A stretch of 32,000 bases of DNA from Candidatus Minimicrobia sp. QA0096 (GCF_963967315.1 NZ_OZ017288.1:390001-422000); one strand, 5' to 3'; shown: positions 2,871-30,166, counted from the stretch's first letter. Numbers and translations: made by a program. Notes: a model not told the origin generated them from the sequence alone.

Positions 2871-2939
2871 ACACTAATTATAACATTTACAAGCAATACT
2901 TAATTTAGGGTCAATAATTAAATATTGGAACACAAAGAT

Positions 2940-3515: not shown

Positions 3516-3522
3516 ATTTCAA

Positions 3523-3996
3523 TTATACCCGATTCATCGCCGCGTGTGTAATTGCTGCAGCCAAAGCATCCGCGCAATCATCCGGCTTCGGAACATCTTT
3601 CAAACCCAAATTAAGGCGCACCATTTCCTGAACTTGCTTTTTATCAGCCTTTCCATAGCCGGTCAAAGTTTGCTTTATTTGCAACGGTGTATATTCAGCA
3701 ATCGGCATTCCGGCTTTTCGCCCAGTCAACATCGCCACACCACGCGCCTCCGCCACAGAAATCGCCGTCGTAACATTGCGCGCAAAAAATAGCTTTTCAA
3801 TCGACATAACATCAGGATTTGTTTCGGCAATAATCTCTGTCAGGCTATCAAAAATCTCCTCCAGTCGCTCGTCAATTGGCGTATGTGCCGGCGTCGTCAC
3901 AACTCCCGCCGTGACCATCTTAAACTTGCCACGAGAAAAATCAATCACACCAAACCCTAAAATCCCCGTTCCCGGGTCAATCCCGATAATTCTCAT
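3523..3996 (-). CDS. ruvC: Crossover junction endodeoxyribonuclease RuvC
   Basis: MRIIGIDPGTGILGFGVI... is the canonical RuvC N-terminus. The ATG at 3996 is chosen over the track's 4095 start because the longer form overlaps the upstream gene and TGcTATAAT (4003-4011) lies 6 nt upstream of 3996. Confidence 0.92.
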   Translation of the reverse strand: MRIIGIDPGTGILGFGVIDFSRGKFKMVTAGVVTTPAHTPIDERLEEIFDSLTEIIAETNPDVMSIEKLFFARNVTTAISVAEARGVAMLTGRKAGMPIAEYTPLQIKQTLTGYGKADKKQVQEMVRLNLGLKDVPKPDDCADALAAAITHAAMNRV

Positions 3997-4012
3997 ATCT
4001 TTATTATAGCAA

Positions 4013-5797
4013 TTATTTGCCGTTAGCGGATTTAATACTTTCGCAGATTTTTCGTACAAATTGCGAAATTTCCCATCGCCATTGCCATACGCCATAACCG
4101 ACGGCCAGTAAGCTCACGCCACCAAATACCCACCAACCCCAAGTAGCACCAGCGACTTGCTTAACTTCAGCGGCCGCCGAACCAACAGTTGGCATATTCG
4201 CAGATTTTATCTTTCGGCATCGCTTAGTTTGTGGGTTGCGCTCAAATCCTTCTGGACATTCTTTTGCTATACCGTCAGTGGAGGCAATTTTCTTACATCG
4301 ACCCGTAGATGAATTGCGGAATTGACCTTCTGGGCAAGGCTTCAAAGTTTTTGCCGCAGCCGATGCGATAGATCGGCATCTGCCAGTTTCTTCACTACGA
4401 TAATAGCCATCTTTACAGGGCGTAATAGTTTTTTCCACTTCAATTTTTCGACAACGGCCAGTTTCTGGATGACGATATTGACCGGCGGGACAAGAAACCT
4501 CAATGGGCGGAACGGAAATTTTCACACATTTACCCAACACATTTCGCTCGTAACCACTCTGACAGTCTGGATATTCCTTAAAGATATTCTCAGAATTTTC
4601 AGTTATCATAAACGTTTGCATCCACTCATCATCAATCAAACTCCACGAAGAGCTTTTCGATAACTTCTCATATTCAGTGGAATCAATTTTCGAGCCAGCC
4701 TCGTCTAGTAAATAAACTTTTCCTTTTGTTTTTGGCAATTTCAGCTTCGTATTTTTTATTTTGATCGTTAAAAATTCACCAGGATTTAATTCGATGTCAC
4801 CAATATTTTCACGAACGCCAGAATCGCCAACTGTCAATTTACAGCCCGTCGTAATGACGGTTTTTTCGCCAGAATTGATAATTTCAATGAATTGTTCATC
4901 AACATTCGATGCGATTTCACTTAACTTCAGGCCTTCACATTTATTCAACTCCTTTGGAGATTCAGATTTGGAATCTGGGGTTTTGCAATTTGGTCGCGAA
5001 TACGGCTCAACTTCCTGATTGTTAAAATTTTTACCTGACAAAAATTTCGAATCAATAATATTTTCATCAATAAAACAGCGCCAAACAATTTTCACACCGC
5101 CTTTAATCGGCAAACCCGTAGACTTTGAATTATTCCCCCAGCCAACAGTATCTGAAACCGACCCATCCGAACGCGACAACACGACCGATCCATCATTTTG
5201 AGCCAAACCTAAATTATTATCAAACTTTATGGCATCAGCAAGCGTTTTATCGTTCGACAAAACCAAAAATCCGTTCGCCAAGATTACTTCATCCTTGAAA
5301 ATTTTTCCAACGGTTTTAGCGCCAGATCCAGTGTAATACTCTATTTTCCAACCAGCCAAATTAACATTCTGATCCGTCGGATTATAAATCTCAACGTATT
5401 TTTTATCCTGACTAATCTTTGAAATTAATATCGGAGCATTTTCTTCTGTGCTTTTATCTGAATTATCTGTTTTTGGCGGCTCAGATTCGGAATTTGATTC
5501 AGGCTTTGGAGGCTCATTGGCGACATGATTTTCATTCGAGTCATTCGTAGACGGATTTTCCAGTAGAATCTCGGAATTTTCACTTGATTGAGAAGGTGAA
5601 TTGCTATCGATCTGTTCCTTATCAACAACTGGATCTTTCACCTCCTCAGCCGATTTAAGACTATTATCAACAGTCTGAACGTCATCAACTTTCGACTCTT
5701 GAGTAGCACCTGAAACGCCTTCCGCCAAAACCAACGGCGACGGCATTATTAGTGCCGCGGCTAGTATCATAAGTAGTGTGTTTCGCAAATACTTCAT
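4013..5797 (-). CDS. Secreted, C-terminally membrane-anchored protein with two lamin-tail (LTD) domains and five two-cysteine repeats
   Basis: MKYLRNTLLMILAAALIMPSPLVLAEG is a signal peptide, with AAGGAG SD at 5803-5808. The S/N/E/P-rich linker is followed by LTD signatures YVEIYNPTDQNVNLAGWKIEYY and FIEIINSGEKTV. Five C-x2-G-x2-R-x(3-4)-G/K-x-C-x-K/S-I repeats lie at 4208-4564. C-terminal TM is ATWGWWVFGGVSLLAVGYGVWQW. Confidence 0.8.
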   Translation of the reverse strand: MKYLRNTLLMILAAALIMPSPLVLAEGVSGATQESKVDDVQTVDNSLKSAEEVKDPVVDKEQIDSNSPSQSSENSEILLENPSTNDSNENHVANEPPKPESNSESEPPKTDNSDKSTEENAPILISKISQDKKYVEIYNPTDQNVNLAGWKIEYYTGSGAKTVGKIFKDEVILANGFLVLSNDKTLADAIKFDNNLGLAQNDGSVVLSRSDGSVSDTVGWGNNSKSTGLPIKGGVKIVWRCFIDENIIDSKFLSGKNFNNQEVEPYSRPNCKTPDSKSESPKELNKCEGLKLSEIASNVDEQFIEIINSGEKTVITTGCKLTVGDSGVRENIGDIELNPGEFLTIKIKNTKLKLPKTKGKVYLLDEAGSKIDSTEYEKLSKSSSWSLIDDEWMQTFMITENSENIFKEYPDCQSGYERNVLGKCVKISVPPIEVSCPAGQYRHPETGRCRKIEVEKTITPCKDGYYRSEETGRCRSIASAAAKTLKPCPEGQFRNSSTGRCKKIASTDGIAKECPEGFERNPQTKRCRKIKSANMPTVGSAAAEVKQVAGATWGWWVFGGVSLLAVGYGVWQWRWEISQFVRKICESIKSANGK

Positions 5798-6660: not shown

Positions 6661-8112
6661 CTACTCCACAATATTTATCTTAGCGAGGTCTAATTTAGTT
6701 TGCTTTTTCATCCAAATCATTGCCAAAATTAGCGCCACATATAAAACCGCACACTGCCACAAATTGATACTAACTTCCATTTGAGCCCATTCAAATCCAG
6801 CCGTCCAATTGGTGACTTGAATCATATAGCCAAGTAGCCACGTCGTCGGAATTGCAATCAACACACCAATCATCGGCACAAAAACCAGTACACCCGACAT
6901 AAACGTCAGCAGCATCGCTAGCGGTACAAACGGCAAAATCAACATATTCGCAATTAGCGCCACATTACTAATAACCCCAAAACTCATCATAAGTAGCGGC
7001 AATGTCATAATTTGCGCCGACAAAGTTTCAATTAAAATTTGTCGAAACGCGCCCGGCTCTTTATTGCCAAAAAAGTAAGAATGCAAAAGTGGCGCCAACA
7101 TAATTACACCCGCAAATGAAGCAAAGCTTAATTGCCAGCCCAAATCACCCCAGCCAAATTGTGGATTTATCAATAGCGTAATTGCCGCCGACACAGGAAG
7201 CAGGACCAGCGGATGAATTGTCCGACCATAATACCACGCCGCCAAACTCAGTCCCGCCACCAAGCCAGCCCTCGACATACTAGGACTTAATCCAGTCACC
7301 GCCATAAAACCAATTATCATAACAGCCGCGCTGAGCATCGCTAAATATTTTGATCGCTTGGCGAATAATTGTCGCGCTAAACGAACTAAAATTGTTAAAT
7401 TATAGCCGCTCGCCACCACGATATGCGTTAGTCCAGCAATTTTCAAATTGTCACTTAATTCAGCTGGCATAGCACGTCTTAAACCCAGTAAAAATCCCAG
7501 CCCTAGCGCAGATTCAGACTCTGGAACGTGAGTGCGAACTCGCCCGGCAAACCAATCGCGAACTCCCACCGCCACATCACCCGGAACGGGTCTTTCGGCA
7601 CTAATAATTTTCGCCCGATATATGCTTGCTGAAAAAGCCCCAAATCCCGCCGTCATTTTACCCTTAACCCTCACAATATCACTACGCTTAATTGAGTTTT
7701 TATCTGGTGTCGTTACCCAAATTTGTCCCGGCAATTTTTCATTATTCATCTGCAAATTGCCCAGTCTAAGAACCGTTTGACTATTTTTATCGAGATCAGG
7801 ATCCTCCAAAACTTGACCTTGGATAATTGCGACTTTTCCGATTAACGAATCATAAACCTCCACGCCTTTTCTGCCGATTTCACCGCGCCAAAGACCAATC
7901 AAAACTCCAGAAATAATTGCTAAAATCACGAAAAATCGCCAGCGCCAAATTGCCACGATTACAAAAATAACCAGCCCGACCAATAAAAATAATGGATTCG
8001 CCGCAAACGACCGCGGTATGTAATGGATGGAAATTACGCCAATTGTCAGACCGAGGCACCACACCGCCACCAACCAAGAAATATGCAACTTCTTAAATAG
8101 CCAACTATTCAT
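6661..8112 (-). CDS. comEC: ComEC/Rec2 family competence channel protein (OB/DUF4131 plus competence domain only)
   Basis: 483-aa polytopic protein. It has N-terminal TMs, a soluble OB-like segment (VAIIQGQVLEDPD..VRVKGKM), then the competence-domain TM bundle (GLTHIVVASGYNLTIL..MSRAGL). There is no C-terminal metallo-beta-lactamase region. Confidence 0.87.
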   Translation of the reverse strand: MNSWLFKKLHISWLVAVWCLGLTIGVISIHYIPRSFAANPLFLLVGLVIFVIVAIWRWRFFVILAIISGVLIGLWRGEIGRKGVEVYDSLIGKVAIIQGQVLEDPDLDKNSQTVLRLGNLQMNNEKLPGQIWVTTPDKNSIKRSDIVRVKGKMTAGFGAFSASIYRAKIISAERPVPGDVAVGVRDWFAGRVRTHVPESESALGLGFLLGLRRAMPAELSDNLKIAGLTHIVVASGYNLTILVRLARQLFAKRSKYLAMLSAAVMIIGFMAVTGLSPSMSRAGLVAGLSLAAWYYGRTIHPLVLLPVSAAITLLINPQFGWGDLGWQLSFASFAGVIMLAPLLHSYFFGNKEPGAFRQILIETLSAQIMTLPLLMMSFGVISNVALIANMLILPFVPLAMLLTFMSGVLVFVPMIGVLIAIPTTWLLGYMIQVTNWTAGFEWAQMEVSINLWQCAVLYVALILAMIWMKKQTKLDLAKINIVE

Positions 8113-8300: not shown

Positions 8301-8780
8301 TCAATGCTTAGCAAGTTTATGTCCGCCAGTATGTAGTGAAAAAATGTCAATTAGACCACACACCAGACCAAACGTAGCCACATACCGCCAATTATTCGCG
8401 AAAATCCTATACAGCTCCAGCGCCTGTCCGTCTAGTGATATATATTTTCCCAGAGGAACCACCAATAGCGCTGCCGTCAAAAACGCAATTCCCACCGCCG
8501 AGACAATTCTCTCATGTTTTTTCTGATATCTCGGACCACTTAGAAGAAGCATAATTAACGGAATCAACGTTAAGACTAATCCCGAAATTACACCATTTGG
8601 CAATAAACCAGTTTTCAATTTCAAGCCGTCCAGCACCACCGTCAGCCAGTTGCTCCACCATTCTGATAGTAAAAATCCCGTCGCCAACGCCAACGCCAAC
8701 GGACCGAATCTTCGAGATGAAACAAATGCAACCGCAAAAACCGTTACTAAAATTACTCCAAATAGAATTATCACGCTCAC
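8301..8780 (-). CDS. Hypothetical integral membrane protein (about 5 TM)
   Basis: 159-aa hydrophobic ORF whose start overlaps the stop of the upstream DUF192 gene. No recognisable motif. Confidence 0.55.
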   Translation of the reverse strand: MSVIILFGVILVTVFAVAFVSSRRFGPLALALATGFLLSEWWSNWLTVVLDGLKLKTGLLPNGVISGLVLTLIPLIMLLLSGPRYQKKHERIVSAVGIAFLTAALLVVPLGKYISLDGQALELYRIFANNWRYVATFGLVCGLIDIFSLHTGGHKLAKH

Positions 8781-9268
8781 TTATCCTCCTCCAAATCAAA
8801 TTTTACCTGTGACCCAATCATAGCGCTCGCCTGCTTAGCAACTCCTGCCTTCACCTCCAACACGTACTTTGCAGGAACCGGTGGCGCATATTTTTCATGC
8901 GGCTCAGCGTCCGGCTTGACGTTATGTTTTACATAGACAACGCGCTTTTTATCATTGATCCAAATCATATCAACCGAAAACTTCATATCTTTCATCCACA
9001 TTTTATGACGATCGTTATGGTCAAATACGAACAGCATGGCATAATTTTCATCAATCCCCAGCCTTCCAGACAGACCTTTCCGCTGCGATTCTTCGTCATT
9101 AGCAATTTCCGCCTGAAGCATCGTCTTATTAAGGTAAATCATTTCCGTTTTTGGCGAAACCGTTCGAAAAGCATAAAAAATTGCCCCACCAATAACCATC
9201 AGCATACCGCATATAAATATCCATTTAATGACAGTCTGAGTTACTGTCGAGTGACGAGATTCGTCCAT
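8777..9268 (-). CDS. DUF192 domain-containing protein with N-terminal membrane anchor
   Basis: The MLFVFD..MWMKDMKFSVDMIWIN..VVYV..YVLEVKAG pattern matches DUF192 (COG1430). TGtTATAAT lies 6 nt upstream of the ATG. Confidence 0.72.
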   Translation of the reverse strand: MDESRHSTVTQTVIKWIFICGMLMVIGGAIFYAFRTVSPKTEMIYLNKTMLQAEIANDEESQRKGLSGRLGIDENYAMLFVFDHNDRHKMWMKDMKFSVDMIWINDKKRVVYVKHNVKPDAEPHEKYAPPVPAKYVLEVKAGVAKQASAMIGSQVKFDLEEDK

Positions 9269-10739: not shown

Positions 10740-13700
10740 CTATCTTTTTGCAATATCTTGCCTTTTGCTTCTTTGAGCTCTCGCTACCACAATTGTCACC
10801 GCTACAATGATAGATATACCAGCCAAAATAGCTAATACATAAGTGTATCCCGACAATAGATATATCAGAGCTAATGTCACACATACAGCACCCCAGGTCG
10901 TAATCAGTCGTTTGTTAAGCGCCAGTCCCACAACAACCATCAATGAGTGCTCTATTAGGAATAATATTTCCATAACGCTATCTCCCGCGAACGCCAGGAT
11001 GAGAGTTGGCAGACTAAACACAGAGAGAGCCAGTACTAGATGTACTATCGTAGACTTATGAATATACCCCAACCAACGCCACGACAGCGCCGCCCCCGAA
11101 AGAATTGCCACTGACCACAAATATGGTATTGTGATAGCGTGAACGGGCAGGGATAGGTTTTTAACAGTAAATAAAACGCCGCACAAAATCAGGATCACAC
11201 CTGAATCAAAATATAAAATATTCTTTTTAGGAACACCTTCGAACATCAAGGCTATACCGTTAATTATCCACACTAGCGCCGCCAGAATCACTGACGCCAC
11301 AGCAGCGCTAACTGGTGTAGCAATAGACAATAAGACTACCGACCAGCCGATGGCGCTATAGAATGAAGAGTAATACCAACGACTCGATATCTTTCTGGTT
11401 CGCGCAGCAATAGCTAGACCGTAAAATACCGCAAAAACAATCAGGGCAACGACTGACATGAATTCGAGTGGAACAGTAAACCATTGAGCTATAAGGCAAA
11501 GTAACAACACTAGGCTCGGGTGTGCGGCTATTGTCATTATTCGCCAATCTCGTTTAGCAAGTACCGCCATATAAAGAGCTACTGTAGCTGCCAACCACCC
11601 CAATATCTTGCACGACAGATCATATGTTGCCGGTAGATTAATTATTGGAAGCGCTATCGCTGGAACTATAGCAGCACACAGCGTCATATCACCAATAATT
11701 GACGATTGTCTATTCATTAGCAACAGCCAGTACAAAGACCCAAAACCAACTAGACTCACCCATGTAGTAATTGCGAGATTGTCATTAAACGGTATATTCA
11801 ACCAATGCAGGGATAATGAAACAAAGATGATTGTCGTAAGATATGCCCCGCCCAAATAAACCTCTCTACGACATCGGTAAAATGCATAGTATAGCGACAC
11901 CACTAGCGGCAACCAAACTATCGGATGAATTGACGACAACACAACAACGATAGCTACGCCAATGATAGAATGCAATAATAACTCATGGTTTTTGATAACC
12001 GTGTTGTCATGACGATGATAAAGCCATTCTACTATTAATAGCGACGACACATTTATCCACGCCATTAAAATAGAGACGTTTTCACTAGACACCGCAAAAC
12101 CTAAAGCTAGCAAAAATACTGACAACATTAAAGAAGTATGGACTCCAACTACAAATTCATAAACTTTTTCGCGCCATACAACCACACTCATAATGCCAGC
12201 GCCGATAGCTATCGCGCCCGATAGGCACATCAGGGCTTCCTCTGTCGCATAAGTGGCTATTATCGCTGAAGTAAACATTGCCATTAATAGCCAAGTTGAC
12301 GCAGCGCCATACACTAAAGCAGCCTGACTTTTACTAATATTCGGACGCTTCAAAATTAGCAATCGGCAAATAACTGGCAGTGGCGTCATGAATAGAAAAA
12401 TTAGATACTGTACGCGTGGTGCCATAGCTATATCAATATTGAATAGTGTTATACCAATCGGCACCAATAGAATCCCAGATATCACAACCATAATACCGAA
12501 GCGGACACGACGTAACAAAAAAAGGATTGCAAGACTAATCGCTGAAATAACACCAATAAAGATAAAAGCAACCATCATTCGTAGCGAATCTCCAGAACCG
12601 ATCACGCCAAACAGAGCACTTAATGACACAACAAAACTAACCCACAATACTATTTCATGATGTCTATCGTACTGTTTCTGAATGTACATTGATATAGCGG
12701 ACCAGATTATATTTCCAAGTGCCACTAACCCTAGAATCACGCTTACAACCAACTGATTATCATCAGATAAATACATTGCGAAACTAGTAGCCATCACCAT
12801 TAACAATAAGCGAGCTGTTGTCAATTCATAAGTACGCATCTTTTTAGACTTCTCAACAAGAGCAACCGTAAAGTAATATGCAACGCTAGCAAATAACAGT
12901 ACACTAATATCTAATGCACCCATATATGCCGACGAGCTAAGCGCGATAAACATCGTCATCGGCACGATAAACGGATTTACAACGTTTAACGGTTCGACGA
13001 ACTGACGAGGAAAGCGACTAGAAAAATATGCAGCCACAGTCATCAAACATCCAAATAGCAGCATTACAACGTAATACCAGACCAGCTGCGCATGCACAAC
13101 AGCCGGCAAACTAGTCGTCATCGTAAACATTGATAGTAGTGATACATAAGCAAGAGGTCTACTATTCAATCTCACTGTAGCATCAACACACAAAACAGCA
13201 CCAATTACAGAGGTAATAAGCCAGCACCATGCGGGGTCAATACCTAAAAGTAAATTCATAGTCCAGCCGCCAATTGGTACAGCTGCCAAGGCGGTGCCAA
13301 TAAGTGCCGTCGACGCAGATTTCAATATTGGCAAGCGAGCATACAATATCTGACCAATAATATAATAAATAAAAATAAACAACCACACCAACCCAAACCT
13401 GAGCTGTGCCGAAAGCTCAATCGTTTGCGCCAACAACAATATGCCAGCGGTCAATAATAATGACGCAGTATATAGCGCTACATTGATGGTAGTTTGACGA
13501 TTTTTCTCTTTCTCTTTATTGCCAACTAACGGTACCTGCTCAGAGATTTGCACCTCTTTAGCGGGAATATTCACATTTTCTTCAATCGGTACAGCATCAG
13601 TAGGTGGCGCAACGTCAGGCTCTTGCTCTTCGCTACTAATTAGCACAAGGTCACTAAACTGCGGAACTGCCTTTTGATTCTCGGTAATAAGCCTCACTTG

Positions 13701-13871
13701 ACCGTTGTCATTCTCAATTTTGGCGCGACCAGCCTGTGCATCACGCACGCCATCCCAATATCCCTGCCGATAATCTTCGGAATAATTAGACGGCTGGCTA
13801 TCACCCCTCTGTAATAATTTTATTAGCTTAATTACTACAATAATAACTATTATCAGAAAAATTAATCCCAT
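10740..13871 (-). CDS. Very large polytopic membrane protein of unknown function (1043 aa)
   Basis: Single uninterrupted ORF with a GAGGGA SD. It has an N-terminal TM, an acidic ~110-aa linker, then hydrophobic helices nearly continuously to the C-terminus. No catalytic motif recognised. Confidence 0.75.
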   Translation of the reverse strand: MGLIFLIIVIIVVIKLIKLLQRGDSQPSNYSEDYRQGYWDGVRDAQAGRAKIENDNGQVRLITENQKAVPQFSDLVLISSEEQEPDVAPPTDAVPIEENVNIPAKEVQISEQVPLVGNKEKEKNRQTTINVALYTASLLLTAGILLLAQTIELSAQLRFGLVWLFIFIYYIIGQILYARLPILKSASTALIGTALAAVPIGGWTMNLLLGIDPAWCWLITSVIGAVLCVDATVRLNSRPLAYVSLLSMFTMTTSLPAVVHAQLVWYYVVMLLFGCLMTVAAYFSSRFPRQFVEPLNVVNPFIVPMTMFIALSSSAYMGALDISVLLFASVAYYFTVALVEKSKKMRTYELTTARLLLMVMATSFAMYLSDDNQLVVSVILGLVALGNIIWSAISMYIQKQYDRHHEIVLWVSFVVSLSALFGVIGSGDSLRMMVAFIFIGVISAISLAILFLLRRVRFGIMVVISGILLVPIGITLFNIDIAMAPRVQYLIFLFMTPLPVICRLLILKRPNISKSQAALVYGAASTWLLMAMFTSAIIATYATEEALMCLSGAIAIGAGIMSVVVWREKVYEFVVGVHTSLMLSVFLLALGFAVSSENVSILMAWINVSSLLIVEWLYHRHDNTVIKNHELLLHSIIGVAIVVVLSSIHPIVWLPLVVSLYYAFYRCRREVYLGGAYLTTIIFVSLSLHWLNIPFNDNLAITTWVSLVGFGSLYWLLLMNRQSSIIGDMTLCAAIVPAIALPIINLPATYDLSCKILGWLAATVALYMAVLAKRDWRIMTIAAHPSLVLLLCLIAQWFTVPLEFMSVVALIVFAVFYGLAIAARTRKISSRWYYSSFYSAIGWSVVLLSIATPVSAAVASVILAALVWIINGIALMFEGVPKKNILYFDSGVILILCGVLFTVKNLSLPVHAITIPYLWSVAILSGAALSWRWLGYIHKSTIVHLVLALSVFSLPTLILAFAGDSVMEILFLIEHSLMVVVGLALNKRLITTWGAVCVTLALIYLLSGYTYVLAILAGISIIVAVTIVVARAQRSKRQDIAKR

Positions 13872-18422: not shown

Positions 18423-19790
18423 TTATCGTCTTTCCGTAAAGTAGCGCGCTGCATCTGAAGAGAACAACATCATGATCATAATATGCACGCCAATTGAGAT
18501 CAAAAGCAGCATAATCGACGCATTAATTCGCCCAATTGTCACGGATAAAGATTCGGTGACAATAGCTAATGTCGCTACAGAAAGTAGTGAGATTCGCGCC
18601 CGGCTACTTCCTCGAAGTAGCAGTCCAACCAGCACGATTTCCGCCACGACCAACAGCACATTAAAGCCGGCCATCATCGATAACATGGTATTCGCGGCAT
18701 TTATATCAATTCCGTCAATATTCGCAACCTGCACCAAAGTCGTCGGCCAACTAGAAAAGTCCACCAACATTTGCCCAATTGTGAATAACGACGCCAGAAT
18801 CATTAATCCGCCGCCAATTAAAATCTGCGGTGGTCGGCGACTCCAAAGCTCTTCCAGTAAAGTTTCGTGATTTCGCGGATGACGATCATAAATTGTGCCA
18901 TCCATAATCACCCCGAGCCGCGTTGAAGCCGTGACATTATCGTCAGCCTTTATTCGACCAACTCCCAAAATTGGCAAATCGCCATCAGTGCGGATAGAAT
19001 CTCCAAGACCATTGCGCGAATGATAGCCCGTTGAAAAATCCTTTAATATCGTCACTCTAACATTTTTATTGTTACTTTTAACCGACTCAATGATATAATC
19101 TCGTTCAATATCAATATTCTCGTCAATTTTATGCGTGAACTGGAAAGTAAACAAAGAAAAGCCAACGCTCTTATCGTATGTACCAGCCGCCAACCAATCA
19201 ACTCGATGACCGCCAGGAAGAAGCCAGCCAGTTGGGCATCGCCAAAACCTAACATGATGACGACGCCTTGGATTGCCGTCAACTTCCTGCTGATAAGCAA
19301 AGTCCTGCCGTCTACCAAACAAAAATGCGGGCGACACCGGTGCATTTGGATAACTACGACCACTCAGCACCGTAAGCACCATTTTCCAAGCCGACCTTGG
19401 AGTTATGTCATCCGCCAAAACCCAGCCAGCCTCAGTCATTGCCTTATGGAGCTTTTCTTCTGAACCACGCACGCTCAAATTGACAGGGTCGCTTAATACT
19501 CCGTCCGCCGTTCGCGTCCTGCCAATAAAATAATTCGGTACGTACATATTGCTCAAAATTCGATGAAGCCTAGGCAACGCCAAATATGCCACAATTATCC
19601 ACACAACAAAGAACAAGCCAACCAGCCACCAGCCGCCCGTCGCCCAACCTTCTCTAAGTACCAACCATGCCAACCAAAACGATGCCAGACCTGCAAAGAT
19701 AAAAAAGGATTGGTCTAACAATGTAGTCAAGGTCTTCGAGGAGCGATCTTGCCTGGCTGCTATTTTTTTTGGAGTTTTTACTGAACTCAT
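18423..19790 (-). CDS. LssY C-terminal domain-containing membrane protein
   Basis: N-terminal TMs are followed by DPVNLSV.G....L...M.EAGW..AD...PVSPAFLFGRRQDFAYQQE....RRRHHVRFW...THKIDENIDIERDY, the LssY_C pattern as I recall it. Additional TM helices at the C-terminus. TGaTATAAT lies 6 nt upstream of the ATG. Confidence 0.72.
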   Translation of the reverse strand: MSSVKTPKKIAARQDRSSKTLTTLLDQSFFIFAGLASFWLAWLVLREGWATGGWWLVGLFFVVWIIVAYLALPRLHRILSNMYVPNYFIGRTRTADGVLSDPVNLSVRGSEEKLHKAMTEAGWVLADDITPRSAWKMVLTVLSGRSYPNAPVSPAFLFGRRQDFAYQQEVDGNPRRRHHVRFWRCPTGWLLPGGHRVDWLAAGTYDKSVGFSLFTFQFTHKIDENIDIERDYIIESVKSNNKNVRVTILKDFSTGYHSRNGLGDSIRTDGDLPILGVGRIKADDNVTASTRLGVIMDGTIYDRHPRNHETLLEELWSRRPPQILIGGGLMILASLFTIGQMLVDFSSWPTTLVQVANIDGIDINAANTMLSMMAGFNVLLVVAEIVLVGLLLRGSSRARISLLSVATLAIVTESLSVTIGRINASIMLLLISIGVHIMIMMLFSSDAARYFTERR

Positions 19791-20497
19791 AGATTAATTA
19801 TATCATTGAGGAGATTTCGAGCTATCAAACGCGCCTCGTCATCTTGACGCTTAAACACGTCGCCGCGCAAAATAATTTCCTCAGTCACTCGAATTGCTCG
19901 CTCCAAATCGTCATTGATAATCACGTGATAATACGGAACTTCAAGCGCGTAAGCCAACTCTTTTATCGCCGAGGCGTGACGCTTTGGCCACTCCGCTTGA
20001 AAATCTTCTTCGGTTGCGTAACGCTTTTTTAATCGCTCAATCCAAGTTTGGCTATTTGGCGGCACAATGAAAATCGCAATGCTATCTGGCGCCAGTCGCT
20101 CATATTCCTCCACGCCCTGAACGTCAATGTCAGTAATTGCCACGCGGTTCTGGTCATGCGCTAATTTCAACTCAGCCACCGACGTCCCATAAACTGTACC
20201 GTGAACAAACTTCGCCTCGATAAATTCATTATTTTGTAGCATATTTTCGGCAGTTCGCGAATCAATAAAGTGATAATCAATTCCATCTTGCTCGGCGCAT
20301 CCGTTATTTGTGCGTGGCGAACGCGTAGTATGAGAAACGATATCGCGAAACCCTGGCGACTTCAATAATTGTTTTTTTATCGTGTCTTTGCCCGCACCAG
20401 AAATTCCCGCGAGCAGCGCAATTTTCGTACTTTTAACCAACTCAATTGTTGATTCAGTTGGCTGATAATTTGTAATAAGATCTTCAATACTTGGCAT
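19787..20497 (-). CDS. gmk: Guanylate kinase family protein (divergent P-loop, 236 aa)
   Basis: GISGAGKDT P-loop, SHTTRSPR....DGIDYHFI guanylate-kinase signature, and EAKFVHGTVYGT..DIDVQG. Confidence 0.68.
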   Translation of the reverse strand: MPSIEDLITNYQPTESTIELVKSTKIALLAGISGAGKDTIKKQLLKSPGFRDIVSHTTRSPRTNNGCAEQDGIDYHFIDSRTAENMLQNNEFIEAKFVHGTVYGTSVAELKLAHDQNRVAITDIDVQGVEEYERLAPDSIAIFIVPPNSQTWIERLKKRYATEEDFQAEWPKRHASAIKELAYALEVPYYHVIINDDLERAIRVTEEIILRGDVFKRQDDEARLIARNLLNDIINL

Positions 20498-20506
20498 AAT
20501 ATCTAC

Positions 20507-20965
20507 CTATAATAACTCATCAAGTACAGATTGCCAATTGGGAAATTCAGAACTTCCAAAACGAATAAGCCGACCAGAAAACTCGCCCGCATCATTCGCC
20601 GTCCGATCGTCAATCAAAATATCGCCTCGACTCAAATTCTTTGCTGACGAAAAAATAACCTTACGAAAGAAAATATTATCCGAACCTTCGCCACCAAAAT
20701 ACTTTTTCACCCACGCCAACTTATCTCCCAAAGCCGTCGGATTTTCCCACGGAGAAGAAGATAAAATGTATAAATCGTATTTGTCTTTCAGGGCGTAAAC
20801 CGCCTCGATAGCTCCAGGCACGGGTTCCATTAAAGAAAAAATTCCTGGAATATTATCGTGATGACCAGCAAACTCATCAATCAACTCGGGCGATATTTTT
20901 GTTAAAGCAGATTTGAAATCCGCCAAAACGCCATCCATATCAATATAAACAATGAGTTTTTTCAT
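20507..20965 (-). CDS. HAD-family 5'(3')-deoxyribonucleotidase (NT5C-like)
   Basis: VYIDMDGVLADF is HAD motif I (DxDxV). Small size and ILIDDR motif fit the NT5C family. Confidence 0.72.
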   Translation of the reverse strand: MKKLIVYIDMDGVLADFKSALTKISPELIDEFAGHHDNIPGIFSLMEPVPGAIEAVYALKDKYDLYILSSSPWENPTALGDKLAWVKKYFGGEGSDNIFFRKVIFSSAKNLSRGDILIDDRTANDAGEFSGRLIRFGSSEFPNWQSVLDELL

Positions 20966-20967
20966 AG

Positions 20968-21930
20968 TTAATCCCTTTTTAGCATCACCATAAATGCTTC
21001 GCTCGGTATGTCAACTTTACCAAAGCGCTTCATTCGTTTTTTACCGCGCGCTTGCTTGGCGAGAAGCTTCTTTTTACGACTGACATCGCCGCCGTAAAGA
21101 TAGCCCGTAACGTCTTTTCGATAAGCGCCGATATTTTCCCTGGCAATAAACTTACCGCCAATTGCCGCTTGCAATGAAACTTCAAAACTCTGGCGCGGCA
21201 CGACTTCTTTCAACTTCTTAACAATCTCGCGCCCCAAATGCTGCGATTCCGACCGATGGCACATTACGCTCAACGAATCAACCATTTCGCCCGCCACATA
21301 AAAATCGACACGCACCAAATCTTCCACTTGATAATCCGCCAACTCATAATTAAACGAACCGTAGCCGCTGGTAATAGATTTCAATTGGTCATAAAAATCC
21401 GTCAACAAATTCGCAAGTGGCGCCGCGAATGAAATCAGCGCCCGCTCGTCAATGTAACTCAGGTTTTTCTGGCGGCCACGCTTGCTCACAATCAACTGAA
21501 TCACCGCACCGATGTAATCCTGCGACACAACAATTTCACCGTCAATCCACGGCTCGCGAATCTCTTTTATCTGCGCTGGGTCGGGCAATTCGCTGGCGGA
21601 TTTAATATCCAGCTCCTCGCCATTCGTCAAACTAACTTGATAATCAGTACTCGGATTGGTCACAATCAAATCCAAATTATATTCACGCTCTAGTCGCTCG
21701 CGAATGATGTCCATATGAAGCAGACCCAAAAATCCAATTCGCACACCATAGCCCAGAACCGGCGAATTTTCCGGCTCGAATTGCAGCGCCGAATCGCTGA
21801 GGCTCAACTTTTCAATTGCCTCTTTCAGGTCATTATAGTCTTCATTGGACACTGGGAAAAACCCCGCATAAACGAAGGGCTTGACTTCTTTGTAGCCGGG
21901 TAGAGGGTGGACGGTAATTTTTTTGGTCAT
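20968..21930 (-). CDS. lepA: Elongation factor 4 (LepA), C-terminal fragment (domains III, V and CTD); split gene or possible pseudogene
   Basis: MTKKITVHPLPGYKEVKPFVYAGFFPV..FEPENSPVLGYGVRIGFLGLLHMDIIRERLEREYNLDLI...KKRMKRFGKVDIPSEAF is LepA from the end of domain II onward. TGATATAAT (21942-21950) lies 11 nt upstream and there is no SD. Confidence 0.9.
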   Translation of the reverse strand: MTKKITVHPLPGYKEVKPFVYAGFFPVSNEDYNDLKEAIEKLSLSDSALQFEPENSPVLGYGVRIGFLGLLHMDIIRERLEREYNLDLIVTNPSTDYQVSLTNGEELDIKSASELPDPAQIKEIREPWIDGEIVVSQDYIGAVIQLIVSKRGRQKNLSYIDERALISFAAPLANLLTDFYDQLKSITSGYGSFNYELADYQVEDLVRVDFYVAGEMVDSLSVMCHRSESQHLGREIVKKLKEVVPRQSFEVSLQAAIGGKFIARENIGAYRKDVTGYLYGGDVSRKKKLLAKQARGKKRMKRFGKVDIPSEAFMVMLKRD

Positions 21931-22040
21931 AACTATTTGTTATTATATCAGCTCAATGTTTTTATATAAACGCACAGTAAATCGCTCCTTGCATGCCTAC
22001 TTATTCTCAGCAAATTATTCCTTACACACTGAGGTCTAAC

Positions 22041-22511
22041 CTATAACTGCTCAAAAATCTTATGAGCTTGATTCTTGCCAATAGCCTGAACCAGTTCAGC
22101 GTAACTCATCCACCGACCGTGCTTAGCTTTGTCGCGACGATAGTCCTTCTCATCGGTAATATCGCCCTTAACTATTGCATCAACATTACGCCAAGCAATC
22201 CAAGGCATGTTATCGCTCAAAAAGCTATAATCTAGATGAACATAATTTTCGTTGATCAGTTTATAGTCTGACGATGAAAATCCGCGCGCATACAACTCGC
22301 GGAGAATAACGTCTGCTAGTTCAGCAAAGTTGTCAGCAGTGACACACAAAAAGTCATCGTATTCTTCACCAAGTTCGTATGATCGTCCATTCATAAAAAC
22401 ACAATACAAATCATCGTCGACAATTTTCTCATCCAACCACACACGACGATCGCGTGTTATCGGAATTACGCGACATCTAATCTTCTCTGTAAAGTTTTTG
22501 AAGTTACTCAT
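22041..22511 (-). CDS. Hypothetical acidic cytoplasmic protein (156 aa), no recognisable domain
   Basis: ORF MSNFKNFTEKIRCRVIPITRDRRVWLDEK...; start taken at 22511 (the track's 22535 start adds a hydrophobic MIYLLLAI). Same strand as the MazG-like gene and 74 nt downstream of it. Confidence 0.5.
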   Translation of the reverse strand: MSNFKNFTEKIRCRVIPITRDRRVWLDEKIVDDDLYCVFMNGRSYELGEEYDDFLCVTADNFAELADVILRELYARGFSSSDYKLINENYVHLDYSFLSDNMPWIAWRNVDAIVKGDITDEKDYRRDKAKHGRWMSYAELVQAIGKNQAHKIFEQL

Positions 22512-22585
22512 AATTGCCAACAACAGATATATCAATACCTATTTCGTGCATTTTATTACATCTGCGCTTTTCAATACAGTATATA

Positions 22586-22900
22586 CTATTTCCACTGTCG
22601 CGTCTGGTTGATCTTGTGCTTCTCAAAATACACTTCCGCCAAATTGACGTCAAACCGATTTGCCAATTCCATCAAATAGTTCAGTACGTCCGCAAACTCC
22701 TCGCGCAGATTGTCGTGGTTATCAGGTCTTTTTTCTCCCTTAAATCCTGTCTCTTTGCGAATCGCCTTCGCCAGCTCGCCAACTTCCTCGGCTAACAATA
22801 AGAATACTTCAGTGACAGAATTTTTATCCCAACCTTTCTCCTTACAAGTTTGATCGAGGTGTTTTTGTAATTCAGTTAAGCTTATTGTTTGTGGATTCAT
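22586..22900 (-). CDS. MazG-like nucleoside triphosphate pyrophosphohydrolase (single-domain, 104 aa)
   Basis: LLLAEEVGELAKAIRKE and EEFADVLNYLMELANRFDVNL are the EExxE / ExxD metal-binding helices of the all-alpha NTP-PPase fold. GAAGGA SD upstream. Confidence 0.8.
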   Translation of the reverse strand: MNPQTISLTELQKHLDQTCKEKGWDKNSVTEVFLLLAEEVGELAKAIRKETGFKGEKRPDNHDNLREEFADVLNYLMELANRFDVNLAEVYFEKHKINQTRQWK

Positions 22901-22927
22901 GGTTTTTCCTTCTTTAATCTTAATTAA
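22869..22927. repeat. Direct repeat copy A (RBS plus first ~10 codons of the MazG-like gene)
   Basis: aattcagttaagcttattgtttgtGgattcAtggtttttccttctttaatcttaattaa matches 23650-23706 with a few substitutions and a 2-nt indel. Confidence 0.85.
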
Positions 22928-23073
22928 CTTACACTTGATGAAATATAAACATAGCAGGAAGCAAGAATCTGCTCGCTATCCAATCCTATTTTTAATTACT
23001 ATTATACTCTGATTTATCAAACAATATATCACTTTGGTTAAATATTTTTTCCTGTGATAGTCCAAAATCTCTA

Positions 23074-23108
23074 CCAGCAACTTTTTTATGAAGTTGCTGG
23101 TTTTGTTT
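23074..23108. terminator. Strong hairpin downstream of the SemiSWEET gene (possible bidirectional terminator)
   Basis: CCAGCAACTT-ttttatg-AAGTTGCTGG is a perfect 10-bp stem. TTTTGTTT follows on the plus strand; on the minus strand TTTT follows after 5 nt. Confidence 0.45.
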
Positions 23109-23117
23109 ATATAACTT

Positions 23118-23381
23118 TTATAAAGAAGTAATAAAAGTTAAACCGCCTAATATCACTCCCGCTGCATTGGGAATGATGAGGATCCAGTCTTTTTTAGGTT
23201 CTTTTGTCCAACCATAGATTACCCAAATTAAACAAGAAACTGCTGCGAATAGTGGTTGGAATGGTTGAGCTTTTTCTCCTTGTAGGTTAGCGATAATTTG
23301 TGGAATATATGCAATAAAGACAAGGATCCCAATAAAAGCTCCAATAGATCCGACAAAGCGATTAATTTTTTGTTTAGACAT
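23118..23381 (-). CDS. SemiSWEET / PQ-loop family small sugar transporter (3 TM, 87 aa)
   Basis: MSKQKINRFVGSIGAFIGILVFIAYIPQIIANL has the PQ motif in TM1. CLIWVIYGW is the W..YG motif of TM2, and IIPNAAGVILG carries the Asn in TM3. GAGG lies 6 nt upstream of the ATG at 23381. An alternative ATG at 23393 adds MRYY. Confidence 0.75.
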   Translation of the reverse strand: MSKQKINRFVGSIGAFIGILVFIAYIPQIIANLQGEKAQPFQPLFAAVSCLIWVIYGWTKEPKKDWILIIPNAAGVILGGLTFITSL

Positions 23382-23427
23382 ATAATACCTCATGAGGTTT
23401 TATTATATTATAAAGGAAAAGATGCTG

Positions 23428-23607
23428 TCAATAATTTTGTGTAAACACTCTAGTAGAGTCTTCAAACAAAGTAACTAAGTAACGTTCCAGAGCCTCCTCG
23501 TTAGGAAAAAGAACCTTCTATTTCGTTTGACGTTTGATTTCTTTATTAAGAGACTTAATGAGTTTTGTCGAATAAATGCTATGCCAAATCTGGTAAGGAA
23601 ACTGATT
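23428..23607 (-). pseudogene. IS256-family (mutator-type) transposase C-terminal remnant
   Basis: Minus-strand frame reads NQFPYQIWHSIYSTKLIKSLNKEIKRQTK*KVLFPNEEALERYLVTLFEDSTRVFTQNY*. This matches the conserved C-terminal FP...IYTTN.IE.LN.EI.RR.K....FPNE.A..R block of IS256-type transposases. An in-frame TAG lies at 23518-23520, and the upstream ~350 codons are absent. Confidence 0.6.
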
Positions 23608-23649
23608 TCAGCAATCATACGCGTCAATACTACGAACCAACGCCAAAAA

Positions 23650-23706
23650 AATTCAGTTAAGCTTATTGTTTGTAGATTCGTGGTTTCCCTTTTTAATCTT
23701 AATTAA
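23650..23706. repeat. Direct repeat copy B (decayed copy of the MazG-like gene 5' end)
   Basis: aattcagttaagcttattgtttgtAgattcGtggtttccctttttaatcttaattaa. The ATG of copy A reads ACG here. The terminal TTAATTAA supplies the stop codon of the lepA N-terminal fragment. Confidence 0.85.
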
Positions 23707-24529
23707 AATATCTCCCCAGTGTTACCGTATCGCCAACCCGCGCCTCGCGTGTCGTTTTCAGGTTCGTCACAATATAGCCAATTTCGCCAGTTTCAAGCGA
23801 AGGGTCGGGTTGCATGGCTGGGTTAAGATGACCGACTTCCAGAGCTAGTCCATCTGCGCCAGTCGCCATCATTCGGATAGATTCGCCCTTTTTAATTCGC
23901 CCGTCAACCACCCGCACGTATAAAATCACGCCACGATAATCGTCATAATAGCTATCAAAAATCAACGCCCTAGTCGGACCATCAGCATCGCCAGTTGGTG
24001 CCGGAATTTTATCAACAACCGCATCCAAAACCTTATCTACGTTTTGACCAGTTTTAGCAGAAATATGAATAATCTCGCTCTCGTCGCAGCCCAACAAATT
24101 AATGACTTGCCTGGATACGCGCGGTATATCGGCGGCTGGCAAATCAACCTTATTCAAGACCGGAATAATCGTCAAATCCTGCTCCATTGCCAGGTAAACA
24201 TTCGACAATGTTTGCGCCTGAATTCCTTGACTAGCATCAACCACCAATATCGCGCCCTCGCAAGCCTGCAAGCTACGCGAAACTTCATAACTAAAATCAA
24301 CATGCCCCGGAGTGTCAATCAAATTCAGATCGACATTTTTATATCGCATTCGCACCGGCGCCAACTTAATAGTAATGCCTTTTTCTCGCTCCAAATCCAT
24401 CGAATCCAGCAACTGCGATTTCATCTCGCGCTTTTCTACCGTCCCAGTCATCTCCATCATTCGATCAGCCAGCGTAGACTTGCCGTGATCAATATGAGCA
24501 ATAATACAAAAATTCCGAATATTTTCCAT
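23699..24529 (-). CDS. lepA: Elongation factor 4 (LepA), N-terminal fragment (GTPase domain I plus domain II); split gene or possible pseudogene
   Basis: [40 protein letters not shown].. are the G1-G4 motifs. The fragment ends ..[12 protein letters not shown] followed by RYFN* read from inserted sequence. Its start overlaps the murJ stop (TAATG). Confidence 0.93.
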
Positions 24530-26181
24530 TAGCCCTTAAACTCCAATCGTCCAAATAACACTTTCTTCAATCGCGCAAGAATCGGGTCAATTTCCGGCAA
24601 TTTTAGCCACTTCGAAGCCGCGGCATACGCGCCAAAACTAACCAATGAAATGATAACGAATTTCGGAAAAGCGCTAAAGAAGCTGTCGTCATGATAACGA
24701 AATGGCAAAACCAACACACCAATATAACAAACTACACCCGTAATAATTCCAGCGAGTATCATCTTAAAAATTGCTCGCACAAACGTCATGTCGAATAATT
24801 TTGGCATTTGACGATTCATAACCGCCAAAAGAACAACCACTTCCAAAACTGCCACTGTCGATTGAGCCCAGGCCAATCCATATGCGCCCATTTTCAAAAC
24901 CATCGACAGAACAATTGCTAAGATGATGTTCAAAGTAATCGAGAAAATTGAAATGTACAGCGGAGTTTTCGTGTCTTGGCGGGCGTAAAATGCTCGCGCG
25001 GCCATGTGATAAATAGTTCGGAATAAAATCGCCACGACCAGGCAGCCCAAAATTCCAGCAATCAGCTGATCACCACCGTTACTAATAAAGTGCACAACGT
25101 ATCCCCTGGTAAAGAAAATCACCACCGACATCGGAAGTGCCATCCAAAAAATAATTCTCAGCAGGGAACGCAGGTCTTTTTGAAATAGATCATTTCGACC
25201 TTCGCCCAAATGCTCAGTTAATTGCGGAAAGGCGGCATTTGAAATCGCCACACCAATAAGATTGATCGGCATCATATGAAGAGTCAAAGCCTGTTGGTAC
25301 GCCCTAACCGTTCCGTCAGCCAAGCGCGAAGCCAAATTGACCTCAACCAAGCTAACCACATAATCCATTCCTTGATCGACAGAACGCGCCGGCAATAAAG
25401 ATAAAACTTTCCTAAATCCCTTATTTCGCCAATAGATTTTGAAATTGTAATCAAACCCAAGCCCAGCCAAACCGACCGCACTGACGATCAATTGTAAAAA
25501 TGATCCCAAAACCACACCCAATGCTACACCCATAATGCCGCCGTCAAAAATCTGCCAGCCGAATAAATTGACGCCGCCGGTAAACCACACCGTACCAATA
25601 ATAATACCGACGTTATACAGCATTGGCGCCAGCGCGCAGAACATAAATCGACCAACCGCTTGCTGAATACTAGCAATCACCGCCGCAACCGCAAAGATAA
25701 ACGGGTTAACCGCGATTACCTGCATCATACTGACCGCCAAAGCATGACCAGACTCACTCAGGCCAGGCGCGATTAAGTACTTCATCAACGGATCAGCGAA
25801 AATAATAATCAACACCGACGCCGCCATGGTTATTAGCGCCATAAAATTGATCATGCTAGAGCTAATTTGCCAAGCCGACTGCTTATTGCCCTTGACCCAG
25901 CGCTCATTAAAAACTGGAATGAACGTCACACTAAGCGCACCAGAAACCAGCACTGCAAACATAAAATCTGGCACCATGAAAGCCGCCGTATAAGCGTCTA
26001 GTCCAACCGGGTATCCCGCCGATACTCCATTTTTACTTGGCATGTAGGCAGAGTTAAGTAGACGATCACGGAAAAATCCCAGCAAGCTCGACAGCAACGT
26101 CGAGCTTGCCATAATCGTAGCAGCCAATTTAACATTAAGCCGCTGATTTATTTTCGTAACTGTACTACGAACGCGCCCCAT
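24529..26181 (-). CDS. murJ: Lipid II flippase MurJ (MviN family)
   Basis: 550-aa polytopic protein. The N-terminus ..[26 protein letters not shown] is typical of MurJ, and the rest is consistent with a 14-TM MOP-superfamily layout. Confidence 0.88.
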
Positions 26182-29428: not shown

Positions 29429-30166
29429 ATGACCCCTGTAACAATCTCATCACTGGCCACCATAATTTTTGCAGCGATTATTCACGCTAGTTTTCAGCTT
29501 AGCGTCAGTGTTTTAACGTTACTTAGCGGACATTCAATTGGCAAAAAAACCGCCCAGAGAAAGATTTTTCGTATGAGCAACAGTTTTGTACTTGGAGTCG
29601 CAATGATCACCTTGTTATTTATCAGCTCAATTTCCTATTTCTTATCACTATTCATCCACCACGTCACCAGCGCAGAGCAACTCGTTGCCGCCGTCTCTTC
29701 AGGGATGATGTTTGGATTAGGAATCGCAATTTGGGCGTTCTACTTTCGACGACAACCAGGAACTTCGTTATGGCTTCCACGCAATTTTGCAGAATATTTA
29801 AACAAGCGCACCAAAAAAACCAAAAATTCCATAGAAAGCTTTGCCCTGGGAATAATTAGTGTTATTGCAGAAATCGTATTTATTATCGCGCCAATTATCG
29901 CCGCCAGTCTGGCTATTATCACCCTACCAAACCCCTTCTTGCAAATCGTCAGCATAGCGATCTACGTCATCGTGTCCACACTGCCGTTATTTGTCGTTAT
30001 CGTCTTGATCGGCAGCGGACGCAGCATCTCTAATTTACAACGTTGGAGAGAAGATCATAAGAGATTTTTGCAATTCGCCAGCGGCGGTAGCTTACTAATT
30101 TTGGCGGCATTCCTATTTGTCGATCGCGTTATTGGCGTCATTAGCTATGGAGGCAATCTATGGTAA
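29429..30166 (+). CDS. Hypothetical integral membrane protein (about 6 TM)
   Basis: 245-aa hydrophobic ORF. Its stop overlaps the start of the next gene (ATGGTAA). No motif recognised. Confidence 0.6.
   Translation: MTPVTISSLATIIFAAIIHASFQLSVSVLTLLSGHSIGKKTAQRKIFRMSNSFVLGVAMITLLFISSISYFLSLFIHHVTSAEQLVAAVSSGMMFGLGIAIWAFYFRRQPGTSLWLPRNFAEYLNKRTKKTKNSIESFALGIISVIAEIVFIIAPIIAASLAIITLPNPFLQIVSIAIYVIVSTLPLFVVIVLIGSGRSISNLQRWREDHKRFLQFASGGSLLILAAFLFVDRVIGVISYGGNLW

Follow-up and report, generated by a model that had tools for sequence, protein, structure and literature searches.

The window analysed here is a stretch of 32,000 nucleotides from Candidatus Minimicrobia sp. QA0096 (GCF_963967315.1 NZ_OZ017288.1:390001-422000), and the gene in question is lepA, which codes for elongation factor 4 (EF4, LepA). 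EF4 is encoded in this window not as one polypeptide of ~600 amino acids (aa) but by two open reading frames (ORFs) of 276 and 320 aa, here called lepA-N and lepA-C, which lie 1,768 bp apart. The initial annotation, made from the sequence, had described lepA as two intact ORFs separated by a same-strand stretch of ~1.8 kb, and the ORF scan and the Pfam search bear out both the coordinates and the domains, while the gap itself (21931-23698) contains three same-strand ORFs. The lepA-N ATG and the murJ stop codon overlap by 1 nt. The positions of the two halves, of the genes on either side, and of the signals and repeats discussed below are collected in Table 1.

lepA-N contains the Pfam domains GTP_EFTU (3e-58) and GTP_EFTU_D2 (1e-11). 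All G motifs are present in its translation, with G1 (AHxDHGKST), G3 (DTPGH), G4 (NKxD), and G5 (SAK) readable, and its stop codon lies inside a TTAATTAA palindrome that recurs at module junctions. lepA-C begins with MTKKITVH-PLPGYK, a head that is conserved in the clade, and matches LepA_C (PF06421, 2.7e-43), EFG_C (1.9e-19), and EFG_III (3e-4). The EFG_III match is below the Pfam cut-off, yet the region aligns to the structures 3CB4 and 2YWE. When the halves are concatenated (596 aa), residues 2-594 align with residues 4-598 of Aquifex LepA (2YWE), and residues 1-593 with residues 1-592 of E. coli LepA (3CB4). The break falls in the linker between domains II and III, which is also the sole irregularity of the alignment, being ~6 aa longer than in E. 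coli (LGRYFN followed by MTKKITVHP, against LARNPAEKA). The earlier claim of essentially no coding loss thus holds in that nothing is missing, while the linker has gained ~6 residues. The AlphaFold2 (AF2) model of the fused chain, built on a 74-sequence alignment, has a predicted local distance difference test (pLDDT) value of 88.6 and a predicted template-modelling score (pTM) of 0.82, and superimposes on EF4 structures with template-modelling (TM) scores of 0.79-0.86. No EF4 segment is missing, and the modelled fold is that of a complete EF4. Residues conserved in intact EF4 are retained by both halves. Since the alignment runs from end to end and murJ-lepA synteny is conserved, both pieces derive from a single lepA orthologue, which occupies its usual position directly downstream of murJ. 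A substantial missing part of LepA, or an origin of the two ORFs from different paralogues, would have spoken for something other than a split gene; the alignment is complete and both ORFs belong to the same orthologue.

The same split recurs outside this assembly. One NCBI contig of 689 kb carries the exact 276-aa lepA-N protein, and hundreds of contigs, among them some from named Nanosynbacter genomes, encode near-identical proteins of 276 aa. Nearly all of the best 120 C-half homologues are ~320 aa long and without GTPase domains. Because of this recurrence, misassembly or an assembly chimera is excluded. The only top match among these 120 that also carries the N-terminal domains, P0084, was considered as a same-species 'empty site' and rejected, being a contig-truncated LepA of the intact type from another lineage, with the linker VKRAHATTPLSGYK.

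Table 1. Features of the split lepA locus and its surroundings (positions in the window; a dot marks a feature with no strand assigned).
Feature	Position	Strand	Evidence
lepA-N, EF4 domains I (GTPase) and II, 276 aa	23699-24529	-	ORF scan, Pfam, structure alignment, tail conservation, dN/dS
lepA-C, EF4 domains III and V and LepA-specific C-terminal domain, 320 aa	20968-21930	-	ORF scan, Pfam, alignment, dN/dS
lepA-N tail codons L-G-R-Y-F-N and TAA stop	23699-23719	-	
lepA-C promoter TTTATA-17-TGATATAAT	21942-21970	-	sequence scan
Cargo 1, semiSWEET/MtN3-like membrane protein, 91 aa	23118-23393	-	MtN3_slv 9e-8; phrog_37682 1.7e-44
Cargo 2, MazG-like / dimeric-dUTPase-like nucleoside triphosphate pyrophosphohydrolase, 104 aa	22586-22900	-	Pfam, profile match
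Cargo 3, ORF of 164 aa from TTG, or 156 aa from in-frame ATG at 22511	22041-22535	-	
Sigma-70 consensus promoter TTGACA-18-TATAAT of semiSWEET-like gene	23402-23431	-	
Terminator-like hairpin with 12-bp stem, just downstream of semiSWEET-like gene	23073-23101	.	
Direct-repeat copy A, degenerate MazG ribosome-binding site and first ~12 codons, starting at lepA-N stop	23650-23706	-	
Direct-repeat copy B, functional ribosome-binding site and 5' end of MazG-like gene	22869-22927	-	
murJ, directly upstream of lepA-N	24529-26181	-	
NT5C-type 5'-nucleotidase gene, 2 nt downstream of lepA-C	20507-20965	-	
Guanylate kinase gene (gmk), after NT5C gene	19787-20497		

The comparison set consists of the 80 closest species-representative loci (labelled L), all from Saccharibacteria and with 73-99% identity in the N-half. 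lepA is split at the same break point in 64 of the 80 loci; both halves are visible in 50 of these, and the remaining 14 show a tail and stop of the split type. The other 16 have one continuous lepA with an ancestral-type linker of the form V-x-R-x5-PLPGYK, for example VGDTVTV-RRAQSGQ-PLPGYK, which is like the LARNPAEKA of E. coli. The distance between the halves forms a series of -4 (an ATGA overlap), 89, 143, ~400, and ~700 bp, then 1.4-2.6 kb and up to 7.8 kb, and exceeds 8 kb in three loci (L056, L057, and L066). Every locus that shows both halves has them in N-then-C order on the same strand (51/51), and murJ-lepA synteny is kept in all 80, split or intact. Splits without any cargo are found in L041 (the ATGA overlap), L076 (89 bp), and L049 (143 bp). 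L041 (8229-8270) is the minimal split; its stop and start overlap in TCATGATAG (…TAT TTC TCA TGA / ATG ATA GTC…) with AAGGA upstream, an arrangement that suggests translational coupling of lepA-N and lepA-C. L041 is a single metagenome-assembled genome in which a sequencing frameshift is possible, but its tail is of the split type (LKEYFS and stop). The layout of the window is also that of Southlakia epibionticum ML1, with SEML1_0728 as murJ, SEML1_0727 (918 bp, labelled 'GTP-binding protein') as the N-half, SEML1_0726 (hypothetical, 687 bp) as cargo, and SEML1_0725 as the C-half (PMC10633639 Table S1). When the C-half was searched against 1.84 billion representative proteins, none of the matches from outside Saccharibacteria was a convincing split LepA. 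The inspected matches of ~320 aa (P0125, P0208, and P0264) look like truncated fragments of intact genes.

Selection on the halves was estimated pairwise by the Nei-Gojobori method as the ratio of nonsynonymous to synonymous substitution rates (dN/dS). The median is 0.060 for the N-half (204 pairs) and 0.022 for the C-half (183 pairs), against 0.017 for intact lepA, and the N-half thus evolves ~3 times faster than the C-half. For split loci at a greater distance from the window, dS is 1.3-2.0 or saturated beyond computation. Because dN/dS is low at saturated dS and the break point is shared, both halves are maintained genes under strong purifying selection, and the split is old. The initial annotation had offered a very recent insertion as one possibility, in which a 1.8-kb cassette disrupted an intact lepA and left two decaying pseudogene halves. 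The insert is indeed compositionally distinct, with a promoter and a terminator-like hairpin of its own. However, the split is common to 64 species-level genomes, dN/dS is 0.02-0.06 over saturated dS, the termini and the C-half promoter are conserved, and relatives are split with no cargo at all. The comparative data have already refuted this explanation, and its probability is now negligible. Nor does a cassette appear as the cause of the split, as had been supposed, when relatives are split without cargo or with different cargo, and when cargo differs even among strains whose N-halves are at least 97% identical. As a separate observation, the N-halves of L025-L037, L043, L044, and L053-L063 carry ~40-48 extra residues in the G domain (e.g. 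L044:8001-8951), as two insertions, one after the VRMxY strand and one at the junction of the G domain and domain II.

Both new ends of the split protein are conserved. After VGDTVT, the tail of the N-half reads L-[KGRAQ]-[KRSEG]-Y-[FIMVL] and has 1-5 more residues before the stop codon in all split forms except L028, in which N replaces Y. The 29 tail variants include synonymous TAT/TAC, TTT/TTC, and AAA/AAG changes. The RYFN end in the window, at first taken to be read from foreign sequence, is therefore a clade-conserved tail with synonymous codon variation. L009 and L017 (N-half end 8825-8876) keep L-G-R-Y-L, and a 1-nt deletion lets the frame continue through repeat copy A for 15 more residues, which suggests that the residues beyond R-Y are only loosely constrained. 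Every C-half starts with M-x(0-6)-[IV]-x-[VI]-[QEKHR]-PLPGYK, and the new tail and the new head always occur together. The idea that the tail (LKKYF) and the head (ITVQ) pair as beta strands was not supported by the model, in which the tail is a short helix and the head is a coil.

lepA-C moreover appears to have its own promoter. The extended -10 element TGATATAAT that the initial annotation had placed at 21942-21950 is present, ending 11 nt before the lepA-C ATG, and the feature generalises to related loci. Of the 51 split loci, 34 have a TATAAT box 5-13 nt before the C-half ATG, which in 32 cases carries the TG extension; the sequences upstream fall into at least nine unrelated contexts. 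A box so placed precedes 9.9% of the 760 long ORFs from these loci and none of the 81 starts of lepA-N or intact lepA. The lepA-C start in the window is without a Shine-Dalgarno sequence, and since the -10 box is so close to the ATG, the lepA-C mRNA is probably leaderless or nearly so. The short-gap environmental lineages have a Shine-Dalgarno sequence or a stop/start overlap at the C-half start instead. The hairpin downstream of the semiSWEET-like gene likely interrupts read-through from lepA-N, and a separate lepA-C promoter would make sense for that reason.

Among the present occupants of the gap, the semiSWEET-like gene has the only sigma-70 consensus promoter of the region with 12 of 12 positions matched. 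Its module (about 22928-23649) has a guanine-cytosine (GC) content of 30-34%, against 45-50% in lepA. Two direct-repeat copies, A and B (~58 bp), flank this 781-bp module, and the MazG ATG is mutated to ACG in copy A. The 164-aa ORF gave no family match in the searched libraries and is conserved in 17 related loci. Between copy A and the semiSWEET promoter there is also a 50-aa ORF with a TTG start (23475-23627, minus strand) that recurs in 17 close relatives; it has no Rfam family match and is probably a non-coding spacer conserved only by recency. A phage origin of the insert was rejected, since a blastn comparison of the 1.77-kb insert with 50,697 phage records yielded one trivial 151-bp match; the semiSWEET-like protein is the only cargo product of the window with a strong PHROG match. 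A reading as a defence island was likewise rejected, because PADLOC gave nothing for the three cargo genes except a chance-level Cas12b match of the 164-aa ORF (E 0.006). No integrase, transposase, or recombinase was found in the three cargo ORFs, the island, or the whole window, and the island of the window has no tRNA target.

A further explanation would have the full-length gene or protein restored, either by an excisable element of the skin or nifD type, or by an intron or a split intein. In its favour, no sequence is lost where the two halves abut. However, no recombinase gene was found in the insert or the window, and no repeat pair brackets the whole insert (21931/23698). With Rfam at gathering thresholds, the window yielded 3 tRNAs only and thus no intron, ribozyme, or riboswitch in the insert, and a scan of 21800-23850 at E<=1 added only a chance-level match to RT-6 (E 0.7). 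Pfam shows no Hint or intein domain, and there are just 4-9 extra residues at either end (6 and 8 in the window). Moreover, each half has signals of its own, a conserved tail and stop in the N-half and a start and promoter in the C-half, and the gap consists of ordinary genes over 0 to >8 kb. Restoration is accordingly given hardly any probability.

The gap between the halves is a variable gene island, or integration hotspot, between invariant flanks. Among loci that are at least 97% identical in the N-half, the gap measures 703, ~1,768, 1,836, 1,848, 2,628, or 5,571 bp and holds differing genes. The flanks of the same loci are collinear to the base, with murJ at about -3 in all and NT5C at +3, gmk at +471, and LssY at +1178 where the contig reaches. 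Across all loci there are 268 gap ORFs, and 90% of the coding length is co-directional with lepA. Recurrent cargo families are MazG-like, semiSWEET-like, three NUDIX families, DUF6994, DUF218, and GrpB, and also T5orf172, GNAT, P-loop kinase, S51 peptidase, SDR, methyltransferase, and several without an assigned family. T5orf172 is the only cargo family that matches a candidate defence system. The 202-aa T5orf172/GIY-YIG-like cargo of L025, L026, L029, L030, L032, and L047 corresponds to the PADLOC candidate PDC-S57 (E 9.5e-59), and its gene is usually followed by one for a 212-aa secreted-looking protein. No integrase or transposase was seen among the cargo families examined, a statement that covers these families and not every cargo ORF of all loci. 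The ~400-bp gaps of L039 (8829-9246) and L051 (8838-9237) are tightly packed with the gene of a homologous ~135-aa protein without a Pfam match. This gene starts 8 nt past the N-half stop in L039 and overlaps the stop codon in L051, and its own stop overlaps or abuts the C-half start.

Short duplications mark the borders of the modules. In L002, the lepA-N stop is followed by copy A, which leads straight into the body of the MazG gene, whose start codon is lost (73-aa ORF). This locus looks like the product of recombination between copies A and B, by which the semiSWEET module would have been deleted. L013 is without the MazG gene and the 164-aa ORF. Four islands, those of L002, L005, L014, and L020, contain a copy of the final 48 nt of lepA-N, which every time directly precedes a 183-aa gene. 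The copy in L005 is 100% identical over 48 nt (gap nt ~1156-1200) and ends 2 nt before the ATG of that gene, and in the distant L077 a copy of the lepA-N tail ends a cargo ORF (gap nt ~504). Among these island copies of the lepA-N 3' end, one of the encoded ends is …DTVILAKYFTKDTK and a stop. A fragment of lepA-C (residues 35-62) is also present in the islands of L002, L005, L014, and L020, and forms the start of a 189-193-aa ORF in the first three. The 48-58-bp duplications at the module borders may be traces of single-crossover (Campbell-type) insertion of circular DNA at short homology. This reading fits the lack of a recombinase, the comEC and ruvABC genes in the window, and the comEC-dependent natural transformation by homologous recombination that has been demonstrated in Saccharibacteria, including N. 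lyticus (PMC10633639).

Split forms are monophyletic in 0 of 200 LepA bootstraps (junction columns removed) and in 0 of 100 MurJ bootstraps, and a single origin of the split is thus not recovered in these trees. The intact L050 pairs with the split L051 in 95% of LepA, 96% of LepA C-part, and 100% of MurJ bootstraps, the intact L048 pairs with the split L039 in 92% on the C-part, and the intact L042, L059, L061, and L064 are nested among split lineages with 82-100%. These mixed pairs and nested intact forms speak for several independent fissions at the same linker. On the other hand, one derived tail and head are common to all split forms, as the ancestral-type linker is to all intact ones. 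In addition, the LepA N-part tends to group by split or intact state, while the C-part and MurJ follow lineage, as allele replacement predicts, with weak support. A single fission followed by lateral allele replacement through recombination is favoured. Several independent fissions are considered less likely, but they are a live rival.

Taken together, it is probable, and we hold it with good confidence, that lepA in this oral Saccharibacteria (Nanosynbacter) lineage was stably fissioned at the domain II/III linker and that the gap then became an insertion-tolerant recombination hotspot. The gene would have been cut in this flexible linker into lepA-N (G domain and domain II) and lepA-C (domains III and V and the C-terminal domain, CTD), and each half would have been retained as a working gene with a polypeptide of its own. 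Of the two alternatives in the initial annotation, the sequence therefore supports the one in which EF4 is produced as two polypeptides divided at the boundary of domains II and III; the comparisons that the annotation proposed, namely the alignment of both halves with full-length LepA and the dN/dS of each half, are consistent with it. lepA-C would be transcribed from the extended -10 promoter in front of it into a leaderless-type mRNA, and the two products would act together on the ribosome as a two-piece EF4. The new intergenic space would have tolerated insertions, so that small, mostly co-directional accessory genes were gained, lost, and swapped, and the semiSWEET, MazG, and 164-aa ORF cargo would be merely the current occupant. 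Turnover could proceed by homologous or Campbell-type recombination at the conserved lepA ends and short repeats with no dedicated recombinase, and natural competence may aid it.

Several points weigh against this account. The idea that both halves are made draws on promoter and start signals, their association is a proposal, and the new termini in the fused-chain AF2 model have a pLDDT of ~73 and show no sign of a dedicated interface between tail and head. The order of events, with fission before the first insertion, is drawn from the short-gap forms and is unproven, and the Campbell-type mechanism is drawn from the repeats. A second, intact lepA may lie elsewhere in the genome, although the purifying selection on the halves argues against such redundancy. 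Non-essentiality is usual for lepA, as in E. coli. Transposon sequencing of S. epibionticum classed both lepA halves and the cargo as non-essential at T0, T1, and T2 (PMC10633639), a result that offers no proof of function.

The halves could also have taken separate paths by sub- or neo-functionalisation, with the N-half working as a GTPase by itself and the C-half as an independent factor that binds the ribosome or tRNA, each under separate regulation. Such a division would agree with the separate C-half promoter and the terminator-like hairpin between the halves, with distances above 8 kb in three loci, with the faster evolution of the N-half, and with the G-domain insertions in some lineages. 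It is set against the constant order and strand of the halves, the retention in both of residues conserved in intact EF4, and the finding that the two new termini are always found together. This division of functions is regarded as rather improbable, while a two-piece EF4 remains the preferred account.

A broader proposal joins three elements and is put forward tentatively, with a chance that we would set clearly below even. The split locus would be at once a recombinase-free site of cassette capture and exchange, a laterally spreading split allele, and the source of a non-covalent two-subunit EF4. Naturally competent Saccharibacteria would use the lepA halves as universal homology arms. Modules would be excised as circles via short repeats and re-inserted by a Campbell-type crossover at the 3' end of lepA-N, and re-insertion would leave the 48-58-bp duplications. 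The split allele, with its new tail and head, would replace intact lepA in unrelated lineages, and vice versa, and the C-half of the two-subunit factor would be supplied from leaderless mRNA.

The rest of the window is core chromosome, with tilS, ftsH, murJ, nt5c, gmk, hrcA-grpE-dnaK-dnaJ, comEC, and ruvCAB. ComEC and RuvC-RuvA-RuvB are encoded at 6661-8112 and 1872-4095, respectively. A 1,043-aa ORF (10740-13871, minus strand) between dnaJ and a Zn-protease/RimK pair has no Pfam match, and the same applies to the ORFs at 923-1759, 8301-8780, and 29429-30166.

If the proposed fission is correct, the covalent link between the G-domain/II and the III/V/CTD modules is dispensable, and these bacteria offer a natural system for studying how the two EF4 modules meet on the ribosome. 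It would also mean that the splitting of a gene can open up a place where insertions are tolerated in a densely packed genome of 0.7 Mb, and that this slot serves strain-variable functions, among them enzymes of nucleotide sanitation, a transporter-like small protein, and a candidate defence gene. The idea is directly testable, as Saccharibacteria with the same architecture can be cultivated and are naturally transformable; S. epibionticum ML1 is one such cultivated and genetically tractable species (PMC10633639). Annotation pipelines name the halves 'GTP-binding protein' and 'LepA', and single-copy marker sets that contain lepA may mis-score these genomes.

To our knowledge, EF4/LepA, which is among the most conserved bacterial proteins, has always been described as a single chain, and we know of no report of a split translational GTPase of the EF-G family. 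The literature searched for a split lepA or EF4 yielded no published description. lepA is not mentioned in McLean 2020, Bedree 2018, the TM7x transcriptome preprint, or the main text of Wang 2023, and the text of PMC10633639 does not mention the split layout. The combination of a gene fission with an integration hotspot is thus apparently undescribed, as no published description of it was found.

Compared with canonical single-chain EF4 (E. coli 3CB4, Aquifex 2YWE, and T. thermophilus 4W2E/5J8B), the joined halves have the same five domains, G1-G5, and CTD, with 44-52% identity and TM scores of 0.79-0.86 over the whole length. In contrast to the canonical factor, there would be two chains here, with a linker longer by ~6 aa, new conserved termini, and a separate promoter for the C-half. 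Natural gene fissions are known from reduced genomes, for example those of reverse gyrase and alanyl-tRNA synthetase in Nanoarchaeum equitans, and gene fusions and fissions have been the subject of surveys (e.g. PMC11237513). The lepA split resembles them in that a conserved protein of an ultra-small episymbiont is encoded as two ORFs cut at a domain boundary, both under selection. It is unlike them in that the halves remain in order at the original locus with a variable island between them, and in that split and intact alleles are interleaved among related species. The island itself is similar to integration hotspots or 'plasticity zones', which have invariant flanks and a strain-variable content of small enzymes, membrane proteins, and an occasional candidate defence gene (here PDC-S57/T5orf172). 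Unlike the usual hotspots, its flanks are the halves of one former gene, it has no tRNA, integrase, or transposase, and its module borders carry 48-58-bp duplications of the lepA-N end or of the start of a neighbouring gene. The skin element in B. subtilis sigK and the nifD element of Anabaena are excisable elements that split genes, and like them the lepA insert is a multi-gene stretch between same-strand halves of a conserved gene. In contrast to these elements, it has neither a recombinase nor att-like bracketing repeats, each half is a full translation unit, and excision of the insert would restore no frame.

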